DNA of 49,629 nucleotides, filler included, from Ionaspis alba (Eukaryota): the NCBI GenBank assembly GCA_964255285.1. It is 2 parts of 2 records of this genome, joined end to end, with 100 filler letters (N's around TTAATTAATTAA, not from the genome) between each part and the next. Parts side by side here need not be neighbours in the genome. Positions count along the whole stretch, not along the records: positions 24,898 to 49,629 come from CAXUUL010000169.1; 1 more part is not named here. One strand, given 5' to 3'. The translations under genes and the position numbers were made by a program. Shown piece by piece: positions 7,496 through 49,629 of the stretch; within the stretch, counting starts at the first letter, position 1, and every line of letters starts with the position of its first letter. A model generated the notes under the pieces. That model did no database searches. It had not been told where the DNA came from and worked only from the letters and a program-made list of their open reading frames with translations.

Positions 7496-7884
7496 TTTGC
7501 TGAAAGAAGGAATATAAGATCAAGATCAAAGATTCGCATAGTATCGTCATAGAAGAACGTGTAGAATCAATTAAGAGGAAGTGATTGCCAAGGCTGTCCG
7601 CATACAACTCTGGCTTGGTTGCACAAGCACACAATGTGGAGAGTCGTATTTCTTTGACGCAGGGTTGTATTTAATCGGCAATTCAGGAGAAGGAGGACTC
7701 AGTATACCAGATGATGGTGTTGCAGAAGATGTCGTTCTACGAGTGAACATCCTTCAGAAGTTACGGATTAGGAAGTTTGTTGATATTCCAATGGTTGGCG
7801 GGGTAGCCAGTGTGGTTTTCGACCCGGCCAGCTCGACGAGCTCCACAATGACCACGATTTACACTTCACAGCCCCTTGAGGACA

Positions 7885-8835
7885 ATGGCGACTGCCACCG
7901 AACCTCCCACCCCCTCGCTCTTCACAATCACGACACTTCTTTCCCTCCTCTCCACCCTTGCTCTCCTTCTCACAGCCTATGGCGCCTCAATTCGGCTCTT
8001 GCCAAGCTCCACATCTACGAAACTCCGCATCCTCTACATCTGGCACCTTTTTGACGCCCTGATCCATCTCATCCTGGAAGCCTCTTTCCTCTACAACTGC
8101 TTCTTCACCTTTGTTGCTCTCCCTGCCAGAACCACAGACTATCCACACCCAGCTTCTGCGTCTACCTCATACTCTGCTTTCACGCCTCGGGATGTGTATT
8201 TCCTCAGCGATACGGAAAACCTGTACGGCAGCTTTTATGGGACCAACCCCTTTGCCTTGTTATGGCAGGAATATGCAAAGGCGGATAAGCGGTGGGGAGG
8301 GGCAGACTTGACGGTCATCAGTCTGGAGTTGTTAACGGTTCTGTTAGCGGGACCGTTGGCGGTGTATATTACGGAGCTAGTCAGAAGAGGTGGATGGAGT
8401 GGGAACGGAGGTGCTATAACTGGGAAGTTGTGGTTTTGGGGAAGTGTATTAGCTACTGGAGAGCTGTATGGCGGGTGAGTCTTTGGTTACCGCTCGGGCT
8501 TGTTCGACTCGTCTCGCCGACAGGAGGAAAGCAAGGGGAGTGCTGTACGTAGAGCTGACTGATGATAGCTTTATGACTTTTGCGCCGGAGTGGTTGAGCG
8601 GGAATCCGAACTTGGATGCCTCGAACTTTATGTACAAGTCAGTTTCCCACAGCAAAGTCATCTTGTAACCGTCCCGGCCATCTTACTGATAATCACTACT
8701 AGGTGGTTATATCTGGTCTTCTTCAATACCCTCTGGGTATGGTTTCCTCTCTGGGTACTATATGAAGCATATCAAAACATTACCGCGGCTTTCGTAGTCG
8801 CAGAAACAGGCAAGACAAAAAAGAAAGAGACATGA
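7885..8835 (+). CDS. Emopamil-binding protein (EBP/EXPERA)-like membrane protein
   Basis: WHLFDALIH, LWQEYAKADKRW and ELYGG|FMTFAPEW motifs. Introns 8475-8568 and 8638-8702 keep the frame into WLYLVFFNTLWVWFP. Confidence 0.88.
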
Positions 8836-8929: not shown

Positions 8930-11608
8930 TCACATCGTAACAAGCTCAACAATCCGAACATATTCTGCTGGAAACAGCCCCAGTGTGCCTGCATAACAGC
9001 CCCAGAACCATTCACCATTAACGTCTTCGATCTCCCTCACTTCGGCCCTCCTAGGAAAGGACAGCTCATCTGTGGCGCTCTCCTGCGGTAGATAACTCCA
9101 TATGACCTGTCCCACCATACCAACGCCTCCGTCTGGCGGAAACTTTTGCAACATCGGGATCGTTGTGGGAACGCTGGCGTCGGTGTTGGAAACCTGCTTC
9201 ACGACTGTCTTCGTTTGCCTCCCTTGACCTTCTCGCCAACTCCACTCGTACTTCGAAGGTGTGCCACCTTCGTCTTTCAAAGCATGTCCTCCCACCAGAT
9301 CCTTCACAATGACTCGTCGCTGTCCAGCAGCGGTGTCTTCAAAGCCAGCCAAAATCATTCGGTGACCGCGAAGACAGCGTCTCCATCCTCTATCGCCATT
9401 TTCTCTGCTAATTCGTCCAGAGGCAATCAGTTTATGGTAGCTTGTAGTGCAGATGTCATAGTCACCATCATTGCACTGATAGCAATGAAAGCGAGTTTGA
9501 CTTGGCTGGATGGGATATCTGCAAATATCACAATTCGTGCTAAACGTTAGAGGTCGGTACTGGCCAGATGGGGTAGAATTCATCGTTGGGAAAGCCTGCA
9601 TCATACGCGGTGACATAATAGGTGCGAAAGATGCTTCCGAGTGGTGAGTGGTATCCGTGTAGGTACCCTGATGCATCGATGAAGAGATGTGAGCTACGGG
9701 TAGTAGAGCATGGGTGCAGCATTTGCCCTGGTTGACGCAACGGTTGCAAAAGCCCCACTCTCCGTCATTGCAAGTATCACATTTCCAGAAGCAGTCGTCT
9801 GCGAAGGCAGAGCAGTTCGAACAGAAAGCTCCACTTTGAAGACGCATTGCCGGGTCCTCGCTAGTCATCTTTCTAGTATTGTCTCCAGCGAACGGCTGGA
9901 AACTCTCTGGCCGTGGGCGCAAATACCGATGGCCTACTAGAGTGTGAGGTAGCTGTTGGTCCGGAGAACCTTGTTGCTGGAAACGATGCCAGGCAGCGGT
10001 ACCAAAACCGAACCAGTGAAGGCAGCCAAGGCCGAGCCGGTAGCAGTGATGACAAAGGTTGTAGTTGCCTTCTTTGCAAGCAGAGCAACTCTCGTGCAGA
10101 TCGTACTGTATATCCTTCTTACCACATCTATCACAAGATATGGCAGGCTCCTCATATAGCATTGGCCGGTTTCTAGAACCAGTCGATGAGGATGAAGATG
10201 GCCTGACGTTACTGGAATCAGCTACACTGAGATTTCCGGAAGGCGCCTGTCTCTCGGCTTCGATGTTCACTGAATCCCTGGTGAGGATTCCGAGACCTGC
10301 AGCGGCAGTATGTGAAGTGGTTTGTGACGCTGATGTTGGTGACTCGGTTCTTACATTGGAAGTCACTTGACTTCTGGCTGTCCTCGACTCTGATGATCGG
10401 GGACTTTCAGAACCACCCGTGGCCACTCCTCCGCTCGAAGGACGCGGACGTGGGTCTGTAGATCGCCTACCATGAACGGTCAAGTTGTTTGGCCGCGCGC
10501 CTCCGCTTTCAACTTCCTGTGAACGATTCGAAAGATCAGTCGCGGAGCGAGCCGCCTCTTGACGAACTGAAGGAGATCCGTTGGTAGGGGCTGTTTGTCT
10601 TCTGGTTTCGCTAGCAGTTCTTCCCCGTGACCTATGCTCCGATGGATTTGTTTCGAAGATTTGCGGTCTAGAAACTGGAAGCAGCGATGGACTCGTGGAG
10701 TTTCCTGCCGTGCTAGTCGATCTCCTCTGGTTCCTTCTAGATGCTGGTGTATTCAGAGGACGGGGAAGCAGGTCACTACTGATTTCATGTCGAGAGCTCG
10801 ATCCGCCTGGAGATCTCGACTGTCGTCCATGTCGACGGCGATATGCTTCTGCGATCCGTTCACTAAGCTCGTCTTCTTGTGAAACGTCAAGGTTGTTGAG
10901 ATCAATCCCATCCAAGAGACCCTCTTCCATGATCTGCCGGAGGATCTCCTCTTCTATTTCGGCAGAGTCGATGTCGGAAGAGCCTAATAGAGACCGTAGA
11001 CTAGACTGGTGCTCGATCTGCCGTGCCTGAGACCTCGAATCTATAGATCCAGCGGCTCGGTCTCCTGCGCCTGAGCCATCTCGCCGTCTTCGCTGTCGTG
11101 TTTCATCGTCCCTTGCGTCATGGCCTCTGTTCCTGTGCCGAACGCCTCTCTCATACGTCCTTGGTCCCCTAGCGCCCACATCTCTTAGACTCATTTCCCT
11201 GATCTCCTCCACCATTCTGCGGTCTTCCTCGTCGGCAGCAGTGTTGCTTGTGTCGAGCTTTGGTATCACGTTGTCCCCAGCTTTGTAGACCTTCTTCATC
11301 TCATCCTTCTCTTGCGCCGTTCTATCATTCCCGGGATTTGCTTGGACGAACATTTCCAGCAATGTTGTGACCGTGGCATTTGGCCTGGTCTCTCGCACAG
11401 AGGCACGGCATGATGGGCAGGTGTAGGGGTGGGCTACCTTACCCGCAGCTCGTTTGGCTTGATGTGTAAACCAGCCATGCAAGCAGGAGCCGCAGAATGT
11501 GTGGAGGCAGTCCAGGAGTGTAAGAGGTTGGTAGAGGATCTCTGTGCAGATAGAGCAGGTAAGCTCTTTCTGTAGATCGAGGAGACCGGTCATTGGTTTG
11601 CTCGCCAT
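8930..11608 (-). CDS. RING-finger (C3HC4) protein with ZZ-type zinc fingers and a C-terminal SH3 domain, probable E3 ligase
   Basis: CSICTEILYQPLTLLDCLHTFCGSC...CPSCR; three CxxC-rich ZZ-like repeats (e.g. CDIC...FHCYQCNDGDYDIC); SH3-like DELSF...WFWG...GLFPAEYV. Confidence 0.85.
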   Translation of the reverse strand: MASKPMTGLLDLQKELTCSICTEILYQPLTLLDCLHTFCGSCLHGWFTHQAKRAAGKVAHPYTCPSCRASVRETRPNATVTTLLEMFVQANPGNDRTAQEKDEMKKVYKAGDNVIPKLDTSNTAADEEDRRMVEEIREMSLRDVGARGPRTYERGVRHRNRGHDARDDETRQRRRRDGSGAGDRAAGSIDSRSQARQIEHQSSLRSLLGSSDIDSAEIEEEILRQIMEEGLLDGIDLNNLDVSQEDELSERIAEAYRRRHGRQSRSPGGSSSRHEISSDLLPRPLNTPASRRNQRRSTSTAGNSTSPSLLPVSRPQIFETNPSEHRSRGRTASETRRQTAPTNGSPSVRQEAARSATDLSNRSQEVESGGARPNNLTVHGRRSTDPRPRPSSGGVATGGSESPRSSESRTARSQVTSNVRTESPTSASQTTSHTAAAGLGILTRDSVNIEAERQAPSGNLSVADSSNVRPSSSSSTGSRNRPMLYEEPAISCDRCGKKDIQYDLHESCSACKEGNYNLCHHCYRLGLGCLHWFGFGTAAWHRFQQQGSPDQQLPHTLVGHRYLRPRPESFQPFAGDNTRKMTSEDPAMRLQSGAFCSNCSAFADDCFWKCDTCNDGEWGFCNRCVNQGKCCTHALLPVAHISSSMHQGTYTDTTHHSEASFAPIMSPRMMQAFPTMNSTPSGQYRPLTFSTNCDICRYPIQPSQTRFHCYQCNDGDYDICTTSYHKLIASGRISRENGDRGWRRCLRGHRMILAGFEDTAAGQRRVIVKDLVGGHALKDEGGTPSKYEWSWREGQGRQTKTVVKQVSNTDASVPTTIPMLQKFPPDGGVGMVGQVIWSYLPQESATDELSFPRRAEVREIEDVNGEWFWGCYAGTLGLFPAEYVRIVELVTM

Positions 11609-11992
11609 GATACAGTAAGATGTACAGCATCCAAAATAATTATATCTACATAATGTTCCAGAGTTGCGACTCAGTCAGCGACACCTTCGAGGTGGGGTTA
11701 CTAAGACCGAACATCGTCAGCCCCGCTAAACGTGAAGCCACGAGAGCAGCAGCCACACTAGGGGCTTCACTACAACGCCATCGAGACGACGTCCTCCCAA
11801 ACTGATTGATATGATTTGAGCTTATGACGGGATGCAAATTTGATGATCTTGATTAGGTGGAGATTTATAGCTTTCAGCTACACCTATTACTTTTGTACTT
11901 TCGTGAACCTCATCCCATCCCATTATGTGCAGCGAAGGTGAAACCTAAACGCTTCCCATGGCATGACCTTTCATAGCTTGGATTTGACATCA

Positions 11993-14618
11993 TCAATCAG
12001 CATACCCTACGTCTCTATGAACAGACCCAGACCCATCGAAGCTGGGAGTATCATATGTGCCCTGTGGATCTATTTTCCAAATATTGTTAGCCACCCAAAA
12101 CGAAACATGAACATTGAGAGCATACCTTGGCCGTTCTTCAAGATAAATTCCCTGGTTTTTGTGACTCGGTGTCGAAGATCACTGAGCATCTCATGCATGT
12201 TCAATCTGACCTTCTCGTTCCGAATAGAACCACCTTTGATGGCGGCTTCCGCAACGTCATACCTGCTTACGTTGTTACGAAGCATCATGTCGAATGGAGT
12301 GGTGGTGGAGCCCTCCTCCTTATAGGATTCAATGCTGACCCTCTGCAAGTTAGGGCGGCCGAAGAGTAAACCTTTGAGCTCACCGGCATAACCATGATAG
12401 TTGAAGTGGATAGGCCTATCAGCAGTGAACAGCGCATCGAAGTCCTCCTTTGTCAAGGAATGAGGGTGGGTGCCTTCCAATCCCAGAATCATGAGATCCG
12501 TCACATTGATGACACGAACGCGGAGATCGGGGGCGATGTGACGAAGCATGGCGGCTGCTTCAATGACTTCGAATGTCAATTCTGCACCGATGCCCACAAG
12601 CACAACGTCAGGATCAAGTCCTTCGTCAACGCTGGCAAACTTCCAGACGGAGGCTCCCGCACGGCAATGCGAATCAGCCTCTTCGACTGATAAGAAAACG
12701 GGCTGTGGCTGCTTCGAGCCCACCATGAGGTTCACATAGTTCCTAGATCGAAGACAGTGTGCCAAGGTCGACAGAAACGTGTTTGCATCTGGAGGCAAAT
12801 ATACACGTCCCGCCTGCGGCTTCAGGTTCAAGATAGTGCCTATGAAGCTTGGATTCTGGTGACTAAACCCATTGTGTTCTTGCCGTGTCCAGGTAGACGT
12901 CTCGATATAATTGATACTGCTGATATCCTCGCGCCATTTTGACTCACGAGCCATCTTGTTGAATTTGCTGAACTGGGTAAGCATTGTCTGGATGATCCCA
13001 AGGAAGGATTCGTAAGAAGGGAACAGTCCCGTCCTGCCCGTGAGTGTGTACCCCTGAAGGAAGCCTTGCATGGTGTGTTCACTAAGCATTTCGATCACAC
13101 GACCACCGCGAGCATTGGCGAACTCATCCCATTGGAAATTGCGTGTTGTGTGGTTGAAGACAGCATCAAGCTTATTGCTGACGAGTTCGTCTGGAGAGAA
13201 TATCCTCATAGTGTGTGGATTTTCTACCATTATTCGATCAAGGAGCTCACCGATCGTTTTCATGCAGCTCGCTTGATCGCCCTTTTTCACTCCATACCTG
13301 TGCCAGTCGGGGACTTTCAGGGGTTTGTAGGCGCCGTATGTGCAGAGCTGCTGACCAAGTTTCTTACTGTCGTCCTTGGGAATGATTTTGGTTGCTAGCT
13401 CGGCGATTGCACCTTCTTTTGAAAACAGGTATTGCGGTTTGTAGCTTTCCAGCCATTCTTGAAGCTGTTTCAGCTCTTCCTCGTCTGTTTTGGCACCCAT
13501 CAATGGAACCTGGTGGCTTTTGAAACTTCCTTCCACGAATTCGCCATGGACTTTCTTGGGACAACCCCAACCTTTGGGAGTCCGCATGATCAAGACTGGC
13601 CAGCGTGGCTTCATGATGGGCTTCCCCGAGCGTGCAGCTTTCTGAATTCGTCGTATCTCTTTGAGAGCCCATTCCATGGATACACTCATATCGGTGTCGA
13701 TGTCGTCGAGATCTTCCACAAAGCGACATTGGTAACCATAACCCGTGAACAACGCTACTACTTCCTTGTCATCCATACAACCGTATATGGTTCGTTCACT
13801 GATTTTGAATCCGTTGACATGTACCACCGGTATGACTGCTCCTGATTCCGCAGGATCTATGTACTTGAATCCATGCCATGATGTGCCAGTAGGGCCGCTT
13901 TCAGCCTCACCGTCGCCAACAACACAAGCCACAATAAGATCCGGCTTGTCCATCACCGCTCCGAAGGCAACCGACAGGGCATACCCAAGCTCGCCGCCTT
14001 CGTGTATTGATCCAGGAGTTTCGGCATTGATATGGCTAGGTAGTCCGCCTGGAGTGGAGAATCTAGTGATCAAGTTATGTAGTCCCTTGCGGTCCCTCGT
14101 ATACTGTGGATAAAATCTCTCCATGGAGCCCTCCAGCCACAGCGATGCCAAAATGGCAGGGGCTCCGTGTCCAGGTCCAACGACGTAGATGACGTCAAGG
14201 TCGTGCTTTGATGCCAGTAGGTTGAGATGAGAATATACAAGTGTCAGGCCTGGACAAGTGCCCCAGTGCCCTGTTTTGATCGCTGGTCAACTTATTTCAT
14301 AGGATGACTCTCGGGCTTCGTACCTAGTAGCCTTGGCTTGATATCGTCGAACGTCAACTTTCTTTCAAGCAGAACATTGTCCCGTAGAAAGATCATAGCT
14401 AGACAGTGGTGTCAGCGATATATTCCTAGATCATCAACACATTCAATAAACCAACCAGCAGCGATGTAGTTGGCGGCACGGCGAAATGCCTGCAAGCCAT
14501 CGTAGGTCTCCTCGTCAAGCTTCGTCTTCTCCAATTTGACAGCCAATGAGAGTACGTCATCTGGAATGTTTGAGGGTAACGGCTGCGGATTCGGACGGTC
14601 AATTACTTCTCCAGGCAT
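11993..14618 (-). CDS. xpkA: Xylulose-5-phosphate/fructose-6-phosphate phosphoketolase
   Basis: ATG 14618. Introns approx. 14455-14399, 14323-14271 and 12125-12070. Motifs PRLLG|HWGTCPG, ETPGSIHEGGELGY, GDGEAE, EMLSEH and RQEHNGFSHQNP. Confidence 0.95.
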
Positions 14619-15195
14619 GTTGATGTTTAGTGAGCTTGATGTTGAAATTGATATTCGAAAGCTCAAGAATGCTTGATGGTGAACAACACTAGGAGAGCAG
14701 GTGGCGTTCTCTTTCTAGCACTCATCATGGAAGTGTTCCGCAACTCGAGAGTCTGCAAGAAGCACGGGTGCCGGCGGCTGGCGCTGCTTCGATGAAGACG
14801 TCTGCATGAGATTCACGTAGAATCCGGTTCAGGGTCCAGGGTCCAGCGGTGTTCGGGTACATCGCTTCCTTCACATGCCACCCGGTTCGTCCCCTAACAT
14901 CCCCGATGACGCTGAATGCCCGGAGGGATACTCCCGCCAAAGGTCCCCGCTATTATAGTCCTTGGGAACTCGGACATGCTCCCCATTCCTAGTACCATCA
15001 TACTGCAAGTGATATACCTCCTAGGTAGGTAAATTGGTGAAGTTGCAGCAGTGATTCTTATTTGCTCATAGTTTCACTCAAGTAGCACAGTTTTAGCTTC
15101 AGTCTCGCATCTGTTCATTTCTAGCTGTTAAGGCTGTGTGGTGACATCCAAGAGTCTATGATCAAAAGCCGAAAGACCTCAGCAATTCAACAGCC

Positions 15196-16605
15196 ATGAG
15201 ATCGAAGATCATTCTTGCCATCAACTCCGGTTCAAGCAGTGTTAAAGTCTCATGCTACGAAGCCAAGGAAATAGGGCAAGACCCTCGAAAATTGGCAGAC
15301 GCGGAGGTCGCCGGTCTGACTGCACCTCCAGCCACTTTGAAGTACACCACTGGTTCCACGTCTATCAAAGGCCAAGAGCTCAAGGACATTAATTCTCAGG
15401 AGGATGCTTTTGATTATTTACTGAATCACTTGGTGGAAGACGATGGCGTGCAGCAGGTAAAGTCAAAGGACGATATCACGCATGCCTGCCATCGTGTTGT
15501 CCATGGGGGAGACTTCTCGGGTCCTCATGTCGTAGACTCGGAAACATATCATATGCTAGAAGAACTTACGGATCTTGCTCCGTTGCACAACAAGGCTGCT
15601 CTTACCATTGTTGAAGCATGCACCAAGCTACTACCCAAAGCAGAAAATATAGCCACTTTCGACTCGTCTTTCCATCAAAGTCTGCCGGAGGCCGTCAGGA
15701 CATTCCTAATTGATCCCCAAGTGGCGAAAAAGAACAAGCTGCGCAAATATGGATTCCATGGTATCAGCTATGCCTTTATCGCTCGGTCTGTATCGGAGTT
15801 CCTGCGGAAAGATGTCCAGCAGACAAGCATCATTGCTCTCCATCTTGGGAGCGGTGCATCTGCTTGTGCCATCAAGAACGGGAGGTCTGTTGATACAAGT
15901 ATGTCGCTCACACCATTAGATGGCTTAGGAGGTGCCACAAGGAGCGGCAGCCTTGATCCTAGGTACTTTCCTCATGCTCCAGGACGAACAGGGTTGTATG
16001 GTTGACGTGTCGTAGCCTGATATTCCACTTCACCCATGACGCGGGGAAACCCAGTCCAAGTAGCACCAAAGAAATGCATATCAGTACAGTACGACGCCAC
16101 TCGGCCCAATCATATCTTAGCTGATTACCTTTCAGGCCGAGGAAATTCTCAACAAGAAGTCAGGATGGAAAGCCCTGACAGGAACGACCGACTTTGGCAA
16201 GATCGCAGCCTCCGAGTCTCCTGAATGCAAGCTCGCCTTTGACATCTTCGTAGATAGAATCCTTGGCTTCCTTGGTTCCTACTATGTCAAATTGGAGGGC
16301 CAGGTTGATGCCTTGGTGTTTGCAGGAGGGATTGGAGAGAAGGGTGCGTCGCTCAGAAAGGCGATCGTAGATAAATGTAAATGTCTTGGGTTCGAACTTG
16401 ACAACGAGAAGAACGACGTGGAGATAAAGGATGTGGTTCAAGATATTGGTAGGGAAAGCTCCAGACATCGAGTTCTGGTCTGCCAAACAGACGAGCAGGT
16501 CAGTCGGGAATCCCACCTTTCATTCAATGTCAGAAAACTGACGGCGGCCTCCAGTTCGAAATGGCTAGGGCGTGTTCGGTACGAGAGGATGTGGGAAATC
16601 CGTAG
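15196..16605 (+). CDS. ackA: Acetate kinase
   Basis: Motifs INSGSSSVK, HRVVHGG, LAPLHN, YGFHGISY, HLGSGAS, TRSGSLDP, FAGGIGE and QTDEQ|FEMA. Introns 15963-16015, 16089-16135 and 16499-16554. Confidence 0.95.
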
Positions 16606-17162
16606 AAGGCACAAACAGATACCGTTCAGTATTCAAATAGACTCCTCGGAGCTTGTGTCAACTGACATGGACGTTGTTACTGGTCGGAAGGTCTCTTGCC
16701 GTACGGCTGTTGTGCCTATTTAGTTAATGAGTCAACGAAGAAGTGGACTGATCAAAACTCGATCATAGTTTTTGATATTGGTTTGAAGAATAGATGTTGA
16801 GATCACAAAGTCTTTGGACTTATCGAGTTGAACGGAACTAAAACAGATTCTGAGGGACATTCTGACTTGGAAGACCACCTGCCGATAACGATGCGCCTGA
16901 GCCTTCAGATCCCTGCTGGCTGGAAGAGAAGACAAGGGTATCAATCATACGCTTTTGAAGAAGAGTAAATCAATCACGGAAAATTCGTGTCCACTCTTCG
17001 AGTAGACGATATATCATGAAGCTCGCCAGGGGTCGAAGTAACCAATATATTGTAAGCCGTGATTTGCAAATCTGGAACGATAAGACGAAGCGACCGACTG
17101 AGGATGTTGCGACGTTGAGATCGAACGAGTCGATTGGTGGAAGAAATATCCTCTTGTCAGCT

Positions 17163-35147: not shown

Positions 35148-36693
35148 TCACAAATTTTGCGCACTCGTACTTTCCTGTTCGATTCGATATTGAAGATGGA
35201 TACCATCACCTTCGGGGATCGGCTCTTTCCCTAATCGGACGTATGTCCGCGTAGGCTTAGCTGGGCGCATCGTATACTTATCGTAGACCGAAGAATCGTT
35301 CGGACTTCCATCGATAGCATGTTCTTTCTTGTTTTCTTTAAAACCATCGTATGAACTTGAGCCGGACGATCTGCCGCGGCTTCGATAGGATCGAAAGATG
35401 ATCTTCGAGCTCAAGACGTTCCACGAAGGCAAATGACGTACAAGATTTGTGAATGATGGCTGCAACTCCAAGTCAAAAAGAGTCGGCGTCGCTTTAGAAT
35501 ATGCTTCACCTACCATGCAGCTTGCAGTTATACCAGCGCACATTTCCACAACGCTTGCAATCCCATTAGCTTAAGACTCTGTGAGTCAGGATAAGTACGG
35601 ACCACATCACTAAAACTGGCATTGTTTCATATGTCACGTCCGACGAATATCGGTCAAGTTTCCACTTATAATAAATGCTGAGTGAAGAGGCAACGCAAGC
35701 TCTATAAATTATTGTTAGTAGGACTGTCAGTTAGAATCAAGATATTGAGTAGAACATACATGATACCAGTAAAAAATATGATCATCACTCCAAATTTGCG
35801 CTTATTTGAAAGGCGGAGTCTTGATACGCCAACAATGGGAAGAAGCAAGATATAGACATCAAGTACAAGACTCATACTTGCGATAGGTAGTGTAAGCCGA
35901 AAGGCTCCTTGCATTCGAACGCTTGTAACCGCATCTAAAAAAGTCTGTCCTGGCGCAGGCGCAGTATATGCGAGAGTAGCAATAAGCACAGACAAATAGA
36001 ACAAAACGTTCACCGTGGCACCAGCATAAGACATATAGCGAAGCCATTTCATTGGGCGAAAGATTTGAAGATAGAGCAGGAAGAATGTGAGTTTGACAAA
36101 CGGCCAGATGATCGTGGTAGTCCAGTTTATGAAAAATCCGGTCTAGAAAGATGTCAATGTCTCACACTTCAAATCGTGAACTAAGACACTACTGACCACG
36201 AGAAAATCGTTGCCCGAAATGTCTGCAACTGTCAAATCCCATATATGGGTGCCAAATTTTCCGCGTGTCACAGCTTGCCCATAATCAGCTACGTATAGAT
36301 GTATCAATGTAGAAATTATACTTACCATACATAATGGCAACAAAATAGAGAATTGTCTCGACCTGTTGATTAATATCAGAGTCTGCATTGAATAATTTAC
36401 AATATTAAGGGGAAAGTACCGTCGCAATAATGCAAGTATCTATCATAATTAGCAGGGAATCTATACAGATAGACTGAATACTTGCAATCATCTGGAGTAA
36501 GTTTTTGAACAATCTTCAGCTTCACATAAAGCCTTATTGAGACGAACACAAGCATCATAAAGATCAAAATTGAGCAGATAGCAATAGCGACTGGGCCATT
36601 ACTATAGGGATCAACAAGGTTCGGCGTCACGCCTGGCGGCGGTGTTGCAGCCGGCATTTGAGCTATCTCCACGGCATCAGGGGTTGATTCCAT
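35148..36693 (-). CDS. PTH11/SAT4-like rhodopsin-domain integral membrane protein (no CFEM domain)
   Basis: PAATPPPGVTPNLVDP, IRLYVK...DD|Y, GTHIWD, VKLTFFLLYLQIF, DVYILLLPI, RKFGVMIIF and VEMCAGITASCM|PS motifs; about 8 exons. Confidence 0.85.
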
Positions 36694-38011: not shown

Positions 38012-40078
38012 ATGAATGCTTCATTTCTGTTCGGCTTGTCCTTTGAAGAGGTTATGGAAGTCATCTTTGTTTTCCTGCTGTCAGGAATTCTAACCTGCAT
38101 GGTGTACGCGCCTTATAGTCTCTCAAAGCTCGTCAGGTCTTTGCAGATCTCAGCTTCATGGATGCTCACGCCATTAAGAAGGCCGATGGTCTCCTCTATT
38201 TACGGGATGATGAAAGACTTTGTATGGATCTATCTTGATATTTTCTGCGCCGTCTAATCCAAAATAGCGAGCAGGAGTCTTCTACAGTCCATTTCGGAAA
38301 GCATGTCCTGTACTTATCCGCTCACCGGACGCAATGCTTGAACTAAGTGAAGCACCTGAACTATCTCAGAGGGCCGTCTACGCGGATGTATGATCAATTT
38401 TTTATATATCGTTTTGTGCTTAGAGATAACAGATTTTTGGTCTCCAATACACTATGGCTCATGCCAGGATCAGCTTCGATCCTAACGAGCAGACAAACCT
38501 CAGGTATCGCCTTTTTGCGAGAGCCATACGGCTGAATGGAATTGCTCAGCTAGAATCTCTGGAACCGTACCTACGAGCTAGGCTGGAGCAGAGCTTGACC
38601 AAGGAAATTGATCTTCAACTCACAGATGGTACGCATCAATTGCTGAACTGCTTGATAAACATTGACGCCTGACAGATTGGACGCCAATCAAAATTGCGCC
38701 TGTCATGCGAAGCCTCGCTACAGGCATGCTTGGAGTCTATGTTTTTGGGAGTGCTCTTGGTATACTTCCCATATTTTCTTACATTTGACTGCTTGGATGA
38801 CATGCTGAAGTCGACTTGCCTTTGAAACCCCAGCCTAGGTGGTGACTTCTTTGTTTAGGAAAAAGTAACATGTTAAGTGTCTGTGCAGCAGAAGAATCTG
38901 ACTTTTCATTCGCCATGTCGCAATACTACAACGATACGATCGCCTGTATGGGAGCACTACAAATTGCTCCTAGTTTCATGAAGTCGTATGTTGAACACGA
39001 TATACTTACATTCCATGGGATAATTATTGATTTCTACAGCTTTGTATACTCCTTGATCACCCGGAAGGGCCGAGCTTTAGACATTCTTTTGACGCGTATG
39101 TTGGATGCTGTGGATCCCAAACACAGCAACTGGGAAGAGAATGAAAATCTCAGACGTGTAAGTCTTTATTTTATCCTTAGAATACAAGATGTCTAACATA
39201 TAGTGCGGTAGATGACCCTCCTTCACAACATGATTGAAGCATCCCAAGATTCAGAGTATTGGACGAATACAGCTATTATTCAAGCTATTATAGGAATCTG
39301 GTTTGCTGCGTCGCATCAACCTTGGCTTGTAAGTATTGTCTTTTACTCCTTGCACATCGATGAGCTAATGTGTAAAGAATTTGCATTTTGTGTTTTTAGA
39401 ACTCTGTGCTCGACCAGAATACATCGAACTCTTGCGCGAAGAAATCAGACAACAGGAACGTCTTGATTACAAGCATCTTATTCAGATGCCAATCCTAGAC
39501 AGTTTTATCAAGGAATCAGTGAGACTCAATCCACTTGATAAGAGTACGTTTCATGACAATTGATATCGACACTATTTCGCTGACTTTTACAAGTGGCGAT
39601 TCGTCGCAAGGCACTTCGACCTTATACTTTCTCACATGGCGGACCTCATGTGGCCTCTGGAGAGATAGCTTGCGTCCCGGCATGGGAAATCATGCATAAC
39701 GAATCGAGGTACCCCCAACCAGATGAATTTGATGGCCTTCGCTTTGCTCAAAACACTATCGCCACAATGTCAAAACAAGGAGAAAGCGATCAACGCGGTA
39801 CAACCTTCACCGATGCCTCAAAGGACTTTCCGATCTGGGGTCTTGGATCCAAAGTCTGGTAAGCGTTTTCATACGAGATGTTTACAGTCTTCTAACCCGT
39901 AACGTTCAGTCCTGGCAGATGGCACGCTTCTTTTGTAATGAAGCTGGCCCTCGTCCACTTGATCACGAACTACGATTTCCGGTTGAAGGACAATAATACA
40001 CGCCGAAAGTGGTTCTGGGAGACATTTCAGTTGCCTTACGAATCCACAGAGGTTCTCTTCAAGAAGAGACAGCAGTAG
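38012..40078 (+). CDS. Cytochrome P450 monooxygenase (intron-rich)
   Basis: N-terminal TM segment, I-helix GIWFAASHQ, K-helix DSFIKESVR, FDGLRF, and heme motif WGLGSKVC|PGRWHA split by intron approx. 39859-39909. About 9-10 introns; the 5' exon structure is uncertain. Confidence 0.88.
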
Positions 40079-40375: not shown

Positions 40376-41300
40376 ATGATCATGTCAAGCTTTTCGATGG
40401 CTTTAAAGGAACATCGCGAGCTGTCTCTTTCTGATAAGAATATGGATCCACGAAAAAGAGAGCGTACAATCCCAATGCAAGTCCTGAGCCTAGGCATGCC
40501 GCGCACTGGAACGGCGTGTGAGTGAACTATTTGGAGATCATCATCAGTTTGAAGTCCACTGATCATGATACAAAGCTATGCAAGAAGCACTAAACAGATT
40601 GGATATCCCATGCTACCATGGCTTCACGCTCATTCTCAATCTACAAGATACAGAAATGTGGAATAAAGCGCTGGATGCGAAGTTCTTCGGCAAGGGCACG
40701 CGCTTCACCATATCAGAGTGGGACCAGCTACTGGGCAATTACGCTGCAGTCACGGATCTCCCTGCGATTGCATTCTCAGACGACCTCATCGAAGCCTATC
40801 CAGATGCTAAAGTTGTCCTTGTCGAGCGCGATATTGAGAAATGGTACCAGAGCTTCCATGATGGCATCATCTCGAATTTGTGGAGCCCAATTCTACTAGC
40901 TATAGCCAGCTTGGATCCCTACTTTATGGGGCGGATGTGTGGCACTGCTCAGCGCTGGTCAAGGGGTTGGATGAAGGCACATTCGAGGCAGGAAATGGAG
41001 CAGAATGCACGCAGCAAGTATCAAGAGCACTACGCATTAGTGAAGAAGGTTACCCCCAAGGAGAGGCTGTTGGAATTCGACCTCAAAGACGGTTGGGGGC
41101 CACTGTGCAACTTCCTGGGCAAGCCGATTCCAGACGTACCATTTCCGCATACCAATGAGTCAGCTGCACTCAAGGAGATCATCAATATCATAACTATTCG
41201 TGGTGCGAAGAACGCGCTTCTTCATATCGCCAAGGTATTGCTGCCGCTCCTTGTTGCTTTCGTGGCGTATCGAATTTACACCACAACAAGTAAATTGTGA
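40376..41300 (+). CDS. Sulfotransferase-like P-loop protein (Sulfotransfer_4 family) with a C-terminal membrane anchor
   Basis: 5'-PSB-like LGMPRTGTA|SMQEAL (intron 40518-40575), CYHG, AVTDLP, 3'-PB-like RDIEKWYQS, DGWGPLCNFLGKPIPDVPFP, and a hydrophobic tail. The start codon is uncertain. Confidence 0.8.
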
Positions 41301-42099: not shown

Positions 42100-43061
42100 T
42101 CACCGATTTTTCATTTGATCCAGTCCCGTCCCCTTTATCATCAAGGAATCCTGGCCATCATGTCAATATTTCTATATCGCTGAAAAGGATTGAGTCTGGG
42201 ATCATAACATACCCATAAGGATACCGGAACCCAGTTTGACATAAATTTCACGCTCGAGGCATAGCCGCCTTTCCATATTTGCCAATTTGCACCGTCCAAG
42301 ACTTCTTTGACAACTTTCTCGGCGTACTGTTGCGGCGTCATCCGAGGTACGTTATCTTCGCCTCTTGCCCGTGCTGCAACTGTGTCTTCAATACTGGAAT
42401 ACACGGAGTTGGGCGGAAGCTTGAAGTCTTTTGCTGAATCAAGTATGCGGCTGCTCACCGCCCCTGTCATCACACTCACAACCTTGACCCCAAAAGGTGA
42501 AAGTTCTAAACGCAGTGTCTCGGAGATCTGCGTCAGTGCCGCCTTGGAGCCAGCATAGATACCTGGCCGTACTTGTCAGCAGTCTTTTCAACAAAATATG
42601 CACACCGCACTTTAGGTGTGCACACTTAACCACGGCGTCCGACAGCATGAGCTGATGGAGCATGTGTAGACGATTGTGCCCTTAGCTGCTATCACTAACG
42701 GAGCAAACACCTGTGTGACCCGTACCGCTCCCCAAAGATTGATATCGTACATCGATTTCGCTGTCTCAATATCAAAATCCAAGATCGGGGCCATGAGCGT
42801 CTGGCCTGCATTGCTGACAAGGTAGTCAAGTGTGCCACCAGTCTCTTGCTTGACGCGTTCCATTGCAGCCTGAACACTCTCAGGCAAGGTCGGATCAAGT
42901 GTGAGAAGGACGACATTGGGAAGGGCTTTGAGATGTGACATCTTAGTAGGATCGCGTGCGGTAGCAAAGACGTGTAAGTTAGACTTTTGAAAAACCTCAA
43001 CGAGGGCAGAGCCGATGCCGCCAGCGCTGCAGCCGGTGATGAGGACGGACTTGAGAGCCAT
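42100..43061 (-). CDS. Short-chain dehydrogenase/reductase (Ayr1/17beta-HSD-like)
   Basis: LITGCSAGGIG, VSNAG and catalytic IYAGSK motifs. Introns 42625-42563 and 42212-42151. Confidence 0.92.
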
Positions 43062-43932: not shown

Positions 43933-45831
43933 ATGGCATTTGACACCCCGAGTATCGGAAGTTTGCTATGGCTTTCTGATAGCTCGCAAGATCTATATGG
44001 CTACAAGCAAATGGCTAGAGCAATCATTGGCTGCGTCTCAGTGTATTTGTTGTGGAGATTCTGGAAATTCTCCTTGACACCTTATTTCTATCCAGATGAA
44101 CCCAAAGAACTTCCTTACTGGATCCCAGGTAAATCTCTGTTCCGGAAGCTCAAATTGCTTTTGAATATTTTGTATGACTGATTCTGTGGTGTTCAGTCTT
44201 AGGTACGATAATCAATTGAAGGCCAATGTAAAGATTGTCGACGTCGTTTTACGAAGGCTAACATATCTGTAAAGGCCACGCTGTAGGGTTTTTCAGAAAC
44301 TCATATGCCGTTCTAGAAAATGCACGGTAAGCTCTGAACGATAAAATTTCAATCTATGTGCTCACGCATCGCAGTATATACTTTGGCAATACTCGCGAAC
44401 CATATCGAATTACCGTAGCTGGAAAAAGCATCTATGTTCTGACCAATCCTAATGATGTGCAAGAGCTCTACAAGAACACCGTCTCGATATCTTGGCTTCG
44501 TTTCGTCCAGGATCTATACCGTTGGATTGGCTTTTCCCCGCAAACAATGGAAAACCTCTGGAAAAATCCCACTCAAGAGCAAATGGCCGTCAATCCTGTC
44601 CGTAATAGCCCGCCAAATGACATGGTCGTAGAGTACGAGCGTCGCCAGCTTCTCCCGGGCCCTAATCTGGATCGACTCGCAGCCGTCCTACTTGAACATA
44701 TCACCAAGATCACAAGCCAGAATTACCTGGATATGGAAAGACCATTTGTCCTAGAACGGGATACCGATAGTGTCCAAGTGAATCTGATGGAGTGGACATC
44801 TCATTCGATCATACATGCTATGACTGAGATTTACTGGGGCCAGGCCATCTTCCAAGCAGAACCAGATATAGTGCCGGCTTTCATGAGGTGGGAGGCTTTG
44901 ACGTGGAAGTATGTGTTTCAGCTTCCACGTTTCATAAGCAAAGATATGTACGCCAGTAGAGATCAACTTATCGGTGCTTTTGCAAAATATTTCAGTATTG
45001 CCAAAGCAGATCGAAAGGACACGAATTGGTTTGTTTCCACTAGTGAGGCAGAATTGCGGGACATTGGACTCGATGACCGCGACGTTGGAAGAGTGCATAT
45101 GTTACAGCATTGGGCGTGAGTCTTCCCATTCAATTTCACGAAAGCTATCAGTGGTGACAAACTCTAGCATCAATGGTAATATGCACAAAGTGGTCTTCTG
45201 GATCTTCTCGCACCTCCTTCACGATCAGTCCCTCCTCGATGTCATCCGTCAGGAAACAGCTCCAGGTATTGCCAATGAGAACCTCGATGTAGCCTTCCTC
45301 ACAGGGCAATGTCCCCGCTTGGACTCCGTTTACCACGAAGTCCTACGCTTACGAATGGCCACCTCCTTAATGCGGTATGTCACTGCTCCCACACGCATTG
45401 GCACCAAGATCCTCCATGCCGGCCACAATGTGATGGTGCCATACCGTGAACTACATTACAACGAGGAAATATGGGGAGTCAAATCGTCTGAGTTCAATTC
45501 AGAACGCTTTCTAAAGGACAAGAGCCTGGCGCGTAACCCCAGTTACAGACCTTTTGGCGGCGGACAGCATCTTTGCCCTGGTCGCTTTCTTGCTAAGCAG
45601 TCTGTGTTTGCATTCGTAGCTTTGGTTTTGCATCGGTTTGACCTAGCTCTAGTGAAAGATAAGGGATGTGGGGACGAATTCCCGAGGCCAGACGAGACCA
45701 AGCCAGGCCTCGGATCTTTGCCTCCCTTAAAAGGTGATGATGTGGTTGTGAGATTGAGCCCCAGAGAAATCGATAATGGAGCATCACATGGGAAGAAAAT
45801 GTACTGCACCCAACGGGCCTTATTGTCATAG
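43933..45831 (+). CDS. Cytochrome P450, CYP7/CYP8 (sterol hydroxylase/prostacyclin synthase)-like
   Basis: PKELPYWIP|VLG|HA, I-helix HWA|INGNMHKVVFW, EVLR, SERF and heme PFGGGQHLCPGR. Four introns, including a 6-nt microexon at 44197-44202. Confidence 0.9.
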
Positions 45832-45934: not shown

Positions 45935-47702
45935 CTAAACTGCTGATGAGGTCAATTTCTTTTCTTCTACCAGCCCGAACTCTGTGTTCAATTCTGTGCG
46001 CAACTTGAGTTCTTCTTCAAAGAAAACAACAAGGAAAGTGAACGCAGATATAGCAATAGCCACCTGCCATACAAGTTTAAGACTGCCTTCAAATACGCCG
46101 ACAATTTGCATTTGTAGTTCCGGGTCTGCAGCAAAGGAATCGATATAAGCTTTTGTAGCGTGCTCATAAGCGTGTCCTTTATCAAGAACCGCTCTAACTT
46201 CGGGATTATTGATCTGGTGCAAGAGATCCAGGAATCGGTTGTTGAATACGGTTGCAGAAATTGTGATGCCCCATATGGTCCCGAAACTGCGCAGGAAAGC
46301 CCAGATACCAGTTGCTGTGGCTGCGTCTTCCTCTGGAAGCCCTGCTTGCACTGCTGCCAAAAGAGTCCCAATCGATAGTCCAGTCCCGGCCGAAAAAATG
46401 ACCTGGACGATCGTCCACACTGCGGTAGAAGAAGTTGCAGTAAGCAGGGTGAAAAGCCCAAGCCCAATTGTCATGAGGCCAAAGCCACCTAGATGAAATG
46501 GCTTATACCTGCCCCACTGCTCCATAGCAATGCCCCCAACCGCGGCAAAAACCATCAGCGGAATGACGGTAGGAAGGAGTTGGACCCCAGATCGAGTCGG
46601 AGCCGAACGTAACACGCCTTGGAAATATACGGGCAGAAAGTATATCTCCCAAATCATGAGCAGGGTATGAAAGAAGGTGAGTACGAACACGGTTGCAGAG
46701 GTCCGGTTGGAGAAGAGGCGTTTGGGGAGCGTTGGCTCGAGACAGAAGCGAGAGACCTCATAGACGTAGAAAAGGCATAGGCCAGCAAGACCAAAAACCA
46801 GAGGAACGACAGTGCGCCAGGATGACCATGCATGTGTTGTGCCGCCGCCTGTGAGGGCTAAAAGGATAGAGATGACGCTCAGCACAAATATCGCATTGCC
46901 TAAGAAATCGATCCGCTTGAGCTTCTGCATAACGGTGGACTCCTTGTCGTAGTTGACCTGTAAGAATGCGAGCAAGAGCACAAACGCAATTCCAGCCACA
47001 GGGATATTGAGATAAAATGCCCATCGCCATGTAGCATTTTCAACCATGATGCCACCGAGGAAAGGACCCAGAGCTGTCCCAATAGTTGCGACGCCAAATA
47101 CGATGCCCATAACAGTACCACGCTCACGTACTGGTACAAGGTCGCTGACGATGAGATCGACCATCATAGTGACGCCGCCTCCACCAATGCCCTGTACTGT
47201 ACGCCCTGCTATAAGCATAGGCATATCGCTTGCGCCCCCGCTGAGACCACTTCCGATCATAAACAACGCAACAGCTGATATGATAAGCCATCTCCGGCCC
47301 ACGACATTGGCGGCTTGTCCATAGAATGGCTGGAATGCGGTACTGTGTTTGAAGTATTAGCCTACAAACAAATGAACAATGTTGGAGCCTTTATCTAAGC
47401 TTAACACAAACAAACCTGGTCAAGAAATATGCATTCACTACCCAAATATAGTCATGTCCACCTCCTATATCGTTCACAATTGTTGGTAAGGCCGTTGACA
47501 CAACAGTGCCTTCAAGAGCCGGTAGCATGCCAACAATAGATAGAGCCGCAATCGTTGTCCAGTAATGCCAATTCTTCTTGAGAGGCTCTCTGATAGATGC
47601 TTGGACTTCGATTTGACCGTTTGCAGCATCAGCCAAAGTATTACCCGCGTTTTTGGCAGAAACCGGCATGATGGTGTGGGATTTTTCCCCGATAGAAGAC
47701 AT
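45935..47702 (-). CDS. MFS drug:H+ antiporter (DHA2, 14-TMS) efflux pump
   Basis: LEGTVVSTALPTI, intron 47415-47343, GRTVQGIGGGG, DLVPVRERG, WRWAFYLNIP and FLPVYFQ motifs. Confidence 0.93.
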
Positions 47703-48513
47703 GCTAGATATCAGTTTGAGCCAATGCGGTTGCGTTTTTGCGAATCAGAAAAAAACAGAGAATAATGCGGGATATCAGATTTCGGTAAACGACTTTATTC
47801 AGTCATAGGATATGGGAGCGTTGCTTGAGCCTATCGCAAGAGCCTCACAAATTGTCGGGGGCCCGGGGAAAAAACAACAACCCCCTTCATTCGAAGCATT
47901 GGCCGACACAATCAAGCTACTCGGATCTCCATAATGCCTATCATCTACCATGCCATGTTGTGGGACCACAGCCTCCTGAATTGGAAGGTACTGCGACTGA
48001 AGCATTCAACCAAGTACAAACGACATCATGCAAGTCTCTCGACGCCGCCTCCTGATATTGCTGCATTCCTACTCGGACAAGGGGTTTTTTCCAGACCCAA
48101 GATAGTATGCAGTGAAGTGGCACTCTAGCCCATTAGACTCGTACACAGGTTTCGAGATGCATATGTAGCGTATATGCATGTAATCGTCTGTGCATATACA
48201 GTTGCAGCGCCGTACGCAGCGTACTGCTTACTGTTGTACTTCCACTCGCGATGATGTGTGGTCTCGACCACAACGTGAAGGGACTTTGTTCGGTCCCAGG
48301 CACCGCCGCTGTTTTTCTCAGCTCAATGCCACCATTAGAATGTTTGGAAAGTCTCTTCGCAAATATGACTGACCACTGTGCCAAACGTTTTTTACTTCCT
48401 TTTCCTGCCACAAATTCAGCTTTCCAAATCAGCATTCAATTATTCAAACTTAGGATTTGCTGAACAAACCTTCAAATCATTTTTTAGCCCAATTTCTCAT
48501 CTATCACACCGTC

Positions 48514-48967
48514 ATGACATCCTCATTGTTGCCGCAAGCCAATGGACTCTTACCGTATTGGATGTTTATTGTACTGCACCCCTTCTTGCGTATGACGGAA
48601 CGCCGTGGTATCTTAACCTCAGATTCTAATACGTTTTCAGGTCGCCTTACTTGCGATCTATCAGACCATTCAGGCGCACGCTGCTTCTGCCCAAGCTTCT
48701 AATCCCAAGAGTGACTCTCTACTCTCGACCCGGCATATCGGCGCCTGGACTTTGCTGGCGAGCGTCTTGCATGTTTACACGGCCTATGACATCGGTAACA
48801 GCACGCTCTATACCCTTGCGGTGTGGTCGTTTGGGATTGTTTTTGTCCACTATGCTCTTGAGGTGTTGGCGTTTGGCTTGCGCGAGCGCTACCCAATAAT
48901 AGCGCTGAGTATCTCGACTGGCAGTCTGGCTTGGATGCTTATGTGCCGCGAGTACTATGTAGGATGA
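48514..48967 (+). CDS. Divergent Erg28-like sterol-enzyme scaffold protein
   Basis: Intron 48571-48640 gives MTSSLLPQANGLLPYWMFI|VALLAIYQTIQA...LSTRHIGAWTLLASVLHVYTAYDIGNSTLYTLA...HYALE...ISTGSLAWMLMCREYYVG. This matches the fungal Erg28 pattern (GLLPxW, RTFGTWT, AAYNI, HFxSE, SLxWM..YY). Confidence 0.8.
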
Positions 48968-49629
48968 GTCCTGGCTTTTGTCGTCTATAAAAGCATTGGC
49001 TGAGTAGTATCTTGGCACAATTACCTTTACCAACGCCATTCGTGCAATTCGTCACATATAAAAGAAGAAAATATGATGACAAATTCTCAACCCACAGCTC
49101 CAGCCTTCTTCCCCTTCCTATCATTTGCCCTCTGTTTCTTCTCGTTTCTCCTGACTTTCTCGACCCTGTCTCTCCTGCCCTTCCCTCGTACGGTCTTCCC
49201 CTCGCGGTCTTGTATAGAACGATCTACCCTGCGTCGCGGAGTCTAATCACATCTCCTATACACCAACACTTGTCGAAACTTCTGATATATTCGAAAACTA
49301 GACTAGTCTGTTGAACAAGAAGGGTTTTGGCCTGTTCTACACTTGATCTGTTTTTCATATTGCAGAGTCAGCTATCACCAGAACATTTACTTGTATAACG
49401 AAATCACGACTCGTTGCACCGCCGAAACTGCATTCAACCATTGTATGCTGGCATTTCCGTACGTATGGTAGGGAGCAGTCTCGCATGGAAATATCGGAGG
49501 CTTCTCTCCCGAGACGACTAGTCGAATGTCTGCGCTCGTACTTGACGGGGAAAGAAATTGAGCAATTTCCGCTCCTCACATCTTTGTCCGCTGACAAGTA
49601 GAGTACTGTATATCACTTGTACTGACCAG

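Follow-up and report, generated by a model that had tools for sequence, protein, structure and literature searches.

The window, i.e. the whole stretch of 49,629 nucleotides of Ionaspis alba DNA (GCA_964255285.1) considered here, carries near its end an ERG28-like gene that closes a run of six non-housekeeping genes. In order along the sequence, these are a gene for a Pth11-like fungal rhodopsin-domain membrane protein (35148..36690, minus strand, Pfam Fung_rhodopsin, ends approximate), a many-intron cytochrome P450, hereafter P450a (38012..40078, plus strand), the haem cysteine of which is split by an intron and the frames of which look intact, a Sulfotransfer_4 protein with a C-terminal hydrophobic tail (40376..41300, plus strand, Pfam 215 bits, start approximate), a short-chain dehydrogenase/reductase or SDR (42100..43061, minus strand, Pfam adh_short, 3' end approximate), a second cytochrome P450, hereafter P450b (43933..45831, plus strand, Pfam p450), with intact frames and GNM in the I-helix, and a DHA2/TRI12-like MFS efflux transporter (45935..47702, minus strand), which matches Pfam MFS_1 and TRI12 and, below the cut-off, an EmrB-like NCBIfam model. 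P450b is presumably of the CYP7/CYP8-like type; its PDB matches, namely CYP17A1 and CYP8B1, are weak and generic, and those of the SDR are equally generic. As the sequence-only reading had proposed, the MFS and ERG28-like genes are divergently arranged, the first in-frame ATG of the former (47702) and the start of the latter being separated by an intergenic region of 811 bp (47703..48513). No 8-mer is common to the three long intergenic regions of the cluster.

The ERG28-like gene lies at the visible edge of the cluster, the contig ending about 660 bp further at 49629, while the corresponding contig from run X1 extends 13,110 bp beyond the window end. The visible part comprises P450s, an SDR and an exporter and neither cyclase nor synthase: no core synthase was found on this contig (C169) up to its end, in an assembly that may be incomplete, and no ERG26- or ERG25-like gene in the window. 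Genome-wide, core-gene matches amount to three of the ketosynthase family, two of the squalene-cyclase family, one terpene synthase and no condensation domain. A link to a type III PKS was considered and rejected, the single match of the genome lying on C7 among other genes. No contig overlapping the window end was found in the genome assembly (G000). As for candidate continuations, C170 turned out to be unrelated housekeeping DNA, and C473, with 13,139 bp against the 13,110 bp sought and an ERG26-like gene at its end, was not accepted because the ends do not overlap. At this end of C473 (L051:788-3700), the ERG26-like gene, which is divergent and matches at 39% the one from locus L027 described below, and a P450a-family gene, apparently short, are arranged head-to-head. 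Elsewhere in the genome, rhodopsin-domain (Pth11-like) genes recur with CYP7-like P450s and no visible core gene on C352 (L052:1566-9149) and C476 (L064:2000-7500), which may represent a receptor-plus-P450 module; on C352, the rhodopsin gene is accompanied by both a P450a-family and a P450b-family gene, and no ERG28 was seen in the available sequence.

The ERG28-like gene itself is composed of exon 1 (48514..48570, plus strand), whose 19 codons include a GLLPYW motif and align with exon 1 of the canonical copy of this genome, a predicted intron (48571..48640, plus strand) of 70 nt and phase 0, with GT..AG ends and a branch-like CTAAT site, and exon 2 (48641..48967, plus strand), with 108 codons plus stop and the motifs RHIGAW, H..E and WM; these boundaries are exactly those originally put forward. 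The predicted spliced frame amounts to 384 nt, i.e. 127 amino acids plus stop, and is intact. The intron occupies the conserved position of the family: its codon and phase are identical to those of the intron in the canonical ERG28 of the same genome, and a GT-donor intron is found at the equivalent codon in the ERG28 loci L023, L027, L037 and L046, L015 having GC there. The gene is also covered by contigs from run X1, possibly the source sample itself, which are identical to it in every letter. A 116-aa open frame including exon 2 matches Pfam Erg28 (PF03694) with 61 bits (E 1.5e-16, cut-off 22.2), and the family is therefore recognisable without splicing; the statement that the protein appears only after intron removal holds for the start of the protein, which needs the intron, but not for the exon 2 frame, which matches the family by itself. 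The HMM search, which had been suggested as a check, thus confirms a genuine Erg28-family protein with an intact predicted frame.

Compared with Erg28p/ERG28 (C14orf1), the window copy is alike in its family score above the cut-off, its size, its four predicted helices, its intron position and the residues R-x-x-G-x-W, H..E and WM, but differs in being a second copy, with a short first loop devoid of the conserved Tyr, a 2-residue deletion and His in place of Arg79. Where the canonical copy of the genome reads RTFGTWS, the window copy does read RHIGAWT, and its combination of H and I at these motif positions occurs in none of the 119 homologues with a recognisable motif; as a sign of divergence, for which it had been taken, the motif change says little on its own, because the exact RTFGTW is present in just 34 of 142 homologues. 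The shortening of the first loop was borne out: Q and R are spaced by 20 in the window copy, whereas 70 of 140 aligned rows have 25-29 and 26 rows could not be scored. Besides, the 2-residue deletion before the last helix brings the E-to-W spacing to 24, the value being 26 in 84 of the 140 rows. Both short spacings are found jointly in four rows, namely the window copy, P0001, P0002 and P0005, and one or both deletions are common to more unnamed metagenome Erg28 proteins.

At the well-conserved positions of the family, the window copy retains 25 of 40 residues; the changes include Arg79 (96% conserved) to His, Phe68 to Ile, an altered Pro125 and the deletion of the loop Tyr44. Conserved columns are kept at 25 of 39 compared to 29 of 84 for the other columns (p=0.003), and this preferential keeping, in combination with an intact frame, speaks for selection on the window copy. 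Helix 2 has gained two His residues and the invariant Glu is kept. AlphaFold2 modelling of exon 2 with 94 sequences predicts four helices (2-18, 25-49, 54-77 and 83-107; mean pLDDT 86), so that the window copy is modelled as a small four-helix membrane protein, in line with what the Erg28 family leads one to expect. No solved Erg28 structure was found for comparison, a Foldseek search with the model gave nothing at E<=0.001, and the best matches of a VIA fold search were tetraspanins with Z 8-10, which is below the meaningful level for helical bundles.

Searching the genome for the family returned two Erg28 matches, one on C252 with 128 bits and the window gene with 60 bits. The C252 copy encodes 145 aa with RTFGTW and is flanked by what we take, from the reading of their translations, to be an IFA38-like ketoreductase gene and a GAL7-like gene. 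The two copies are identical at 45 of 145 columns (31%). The IFA38/GAL7 synteny, present for the C252 copy and for nine of 15 ERG28 types from outside this genome, is absent at the window copy, which stands among tailoring genes and not between IFA38 and GAL7. The opposite situation, i.e. a sole ERG28 in conserved synteny, was looked for and is not what the genome holds. From sequence and gene order, the proposal of a diverged paralogue distinct from the housekeeping copy is supported: the window copy is a strongly and probably long-diverged ERG28 paralogue, the housekeeping orthologue being the C252 copy.

The best of 142 database matches to the window protein, P0001, is 42% identical; these homologues came from a full HMMER search, whereas a word-index search with exon 2 gave 17 candidates and no homologue. 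No close relative was found in the databases searched, and the short-loop relatives are unnamed metagenome predictions (P0001, P0002, P0005, L015, L037 and others), which have in common with the window copy the short loop, the shortened last linker and YQT/GQT in helix 1; the His changes of helix 2 are absent from them. A strong short-loop clade including the window copy (support 100/99) was abandoned, since it rested on a misaligned helix 1. In corrected trees built on indel-free columns, the window copy groups with P0006 and not in the short-loop clade with L037; in the AU test, neither short-loop membership (p=0.465) nor pairing with the canonical copy of the genome (p=0.131) is rejected, and a recent duplication from this canonical copy is shown by no tree. 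One Erg28 tree was computed without 24 of 144 rows, left out by length, and a separate 40-row set was hand-picked. The terminal branch of the window copy is long, with 0.7-1.1 changes per column. Apart from these trees, the Atlas cluster nearest to 48641-48964 is an Erg28-like family in which most labelled members come from giant viruses (Nucleocytoviricota).

Regarding the ERG28 context in other fungi, a single metagenome scan of limited sensitivity, seeded with ERG28 patterns, gave 35 loci, one of them (L049) bacterial and discarded as a false match; the remaining 34 fungal loci represent 15 ERG28 types. None of the nine types with IFA38 or GAL7 nearby matches the P450 or 3-beta-HSD queries, several of these canonical loci having short flanks and five canonical types long ones. 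The other six types are non-syntenic; the contigs of two of them do not exceed about 2 kb, which leaves four with usable flanks, among which the L023 type sits among housekeeping genes and three adjoin the two P450 families of the window, i.e. have a P450a- or P450b-family gene at <=8 kb from ERG28. In Fisher tests, this excess of P450 neighbours gives p=0.014 (3/4 vs 0/9), p=0.044 with all non-syntenic types (3/6) and p=0.048 against the five long-flank canonical types, a contrast that rests on three independent outside loci and is partly expected because housekeeping regions seldom hold such P450s. ERG26-like neighbours alone do not reach significance (2/4 vs 0/9, p=0.077). Altogether, the recurring link of extra ERG28 copies with P450 and ERG26-like genes elsewhere is modest but non-trivial.

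The outside loci differ in their neighbour sets. In L037/L038, a short-loop ERG28 is accompanied by a FAD oxidase and by a P450 whose match to P450a extends over 8 of 8 exon pieces (29-60%) and whose top match in this genome is P450a (98 vs 52 bits); the closest relative found for P450a adjoins the short-loop ERG28 of L037. Among the eight loci of the L041 type, seven have a P450b-family gene and seven an ERG26-like gene, and the differences within their ERG28 (three distinct sequences), 7 in number, are all synonymous. The match between P450b and the L046 enzyme is at family level only (27% and 43%), with 201 bits for P450b and 184 and 174 bits for two other genes of this genome. L027 has an ERG26-like gene, for which NSDHL is the best PDB match (E 3e-39), together with a rhodopsin-domain gene, a gene that is possibly ERG25-like and, further away, one of the P450a family. 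The distance from ERG28 to the ERG26-like gene is 2-5.5 kb in L027 and in the seven L041-type loci. L044 is devoid of the ERG26-like gene present in its seven sister loci, and comparing L044 with L046 (about 10300-13000) delineates a module of ERG28, ERG26-like and P450 genes between bZIP and OXA1-like genes. In L027, an intact 241-aa ORF (16021-16743, plus strand) between the ERG26-like gene and the P450, 6 kb from ERG28, is the one that may resemble ERG25; in the Atlas it lies near clusters of fatty-acid hydroxylases (0.92), it shows no His boxes, and searches of Pfam, which gave no match, NCBIfam and homologues lent no support to ERG25. The product is possibly a catalytically dead ERG25-like protein.

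In yeast, Erg28p is a non-catalytic scaffold binding itself, Erg25p, Erg26p and Erg27p, and human ERG28 binds NSDHL and SC4MOL, ERG26/NSDHL being a known ERG28 partner (available text of PMC9730225). By analogy, we see about an even chance that the window paralogue is a pathway-dedicated membrane scaffold for the cluster enzymes, with its loop and helix-2 surface shifting the choice of partners. The canonical C252 copy would then serve ergosterol synthesis, and the window copy, like Erg28p a small non-catalytic four-helix protein of the ER membrane, would tether or stabilise the membrane-anchored enzymes of the cluster, i.e. the two P450s and possibly the sulfotransferase and the SDR, with which it may be co-regulated. 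Such tethering would let a hydrophobic intermediate pass between the enzymes, and the remodelled first loop and the Arg79 to His change would shift the partners bound. The weakest step is the substrate, which would most plausibly be a sterol from the C4-demethylation stage, as in a core-less steroid cluster; the ERG26-like neighbours at other loci point to it, as do the gene set and branch point of the demethoxyviridin (vid) cluster. In the available text of PMC5943271, this cluster of 19 genes has no cyclase and departs from sterol synthesis at the C4-demethylation step, its members including an ERG26-like gene, P450s with a CYP7-like one among them, SDRs, MFS genes and a FAD oxidase; the word 'erg28' does not appear in that text, the likeness is one of gene content and not of sequence comparison, and the window differs by having no ERG26-like gene. 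The idea of a pathway-dedicated scaffold, already advanced in the sequence-only reading, gains comparative support from extra copies beside the same P450 families, the role itself being still a proposed one. A complex prediction with exon 2 and P450b, given as three exon pieces with alignments not used, scored 0.00 and is uninformative either way. As a wider and rather doubtful extension, fungi, including lichen-type ones, may have repeatedly duplicated ERG28 into core-less clusters, where the copies, as dedicated scaffolds, would divert C4-demethylation sterol intermediates to P450, reductase and sulfotransferase steps; the locus in the window would then make a sulfated, oxidised sterol derivative.

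Instead of a dedicated scaffold, the paralogue could be functional and unrelated to its neighbours, as an ER chaperone or a condition-specific backup of the ergosterol complex lying in a variable, P450-collecting region. We hold this to be possible, if on the unlikely side: the gene is at the cluster edge, members of the P450 and rhodopsin families are frequent in the genome (8 strong P450b-family matches, besides the modules on C352 and C476), the neighbour sets differ among outside loci, and ERG28 has non-sterol clients in animals (available text of PMC9730225), but in an independent genome a short-loop ERG28 has a near-orthologue of P450a beside it, two other extra ERG28 copies have as neighbours ERG26-like genes, which are rare, and the window gene is divergently paired with the MFS gene.

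That a resistant or decoy ERG28 would guard sterol synthesis against the cluster product, i.e. the self-resistance initially offered as the other option, appears improbable, because Erg28 is non-catalytic and has no active site, yeast survives its loss (available text of PMC9730225), and the window copy has lost the loop Tyr as well as Arg79, a residue conserved at 96%. Such a role would fit a sterol-pathway gene that is duplicated and placed beside an exporter in a putative cluster, and a decoy has been suggested for the Erg28 domains enriched (normalised occurrence 1.25) in type III PKS clade 7 clusters, which are predicted fungal clusters with P450s, as in the window (available text of PMC6985275). 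This enrichment is a domain count only and is tied to a PKS pair, whereas no PKS is seen in the window and the type III PKS of the genome is unlinked to the window ERG28; nor was any open-access paper found that joins ERG28 duplication with self-resistance. Just as little probability is given to a protein repurposed as a small-molecule carrier or simple catalyst, e.g. an isomerase, through the kept His/Glu pair and new histidines: helix 2 offers the two new His, the invariant Glu is there, and small membrane proteins of fungal clusters that had no assigned function have proved catalytic, as exemplified by DUF1772 (available text of PMC6985275), but no fold match to an enzyme was obtained and the His changes are absent from other short-loop proteins. 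A decaying duplicate devoid of present function, to which the long terminal branch and the lost conserved residues could point, is very unlikely with frame and splice sites intact at 31% identity, conserved columns preferentially kept and a confidently predicted fold.

Returning to the dedicated scaffold, the open-access literature searched yielded neither a study of an ERG28 paralogue borne by a cluster nor a cluster-encoded metabolon scaffold of the Erg28 family. In petunia, an ERG28-like gene is induced along with specialised steroids (available text of PMC10619512). As to how Erg28 selects its partners, the canonical and the diverged copy in one genome form a natural pair that allows specificity tests by loop swapping. 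If the link between ERG28 and such clusters is true, extra ERG28 genes would provide a simple marker of core-less steroid clusters, and a helper ERG28 could raise the yields of fungal P450 pathways rebuilt in a host; if ERG28 was indeed repeatedly duplicated, the extra copies would be the mark of a class of steroid clusters hitherto undescribed and missed by synthase-based mining.

Some minor features were also recorded. Downstream of the ERG28-like gene, a short pyrimidine-rich stretch (49079-49200), about 85% to another contig from run X1, is probably a dispersed repeat. Elsewhere in the window, an EBP/EXPERA-family gene (7852-8478) encodes another membrane protein related to sterols, with 40 kb and assembly gaps separating it from the ERG28-like gene; a divergent pair of phosphoketolase and acetate kinase genes lies at 12070-16723. 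On C95 of the same genome (L063:949-9273), a terpene synthase, a P450, a FAD oxidase and an SDR form a small terpene cluster.
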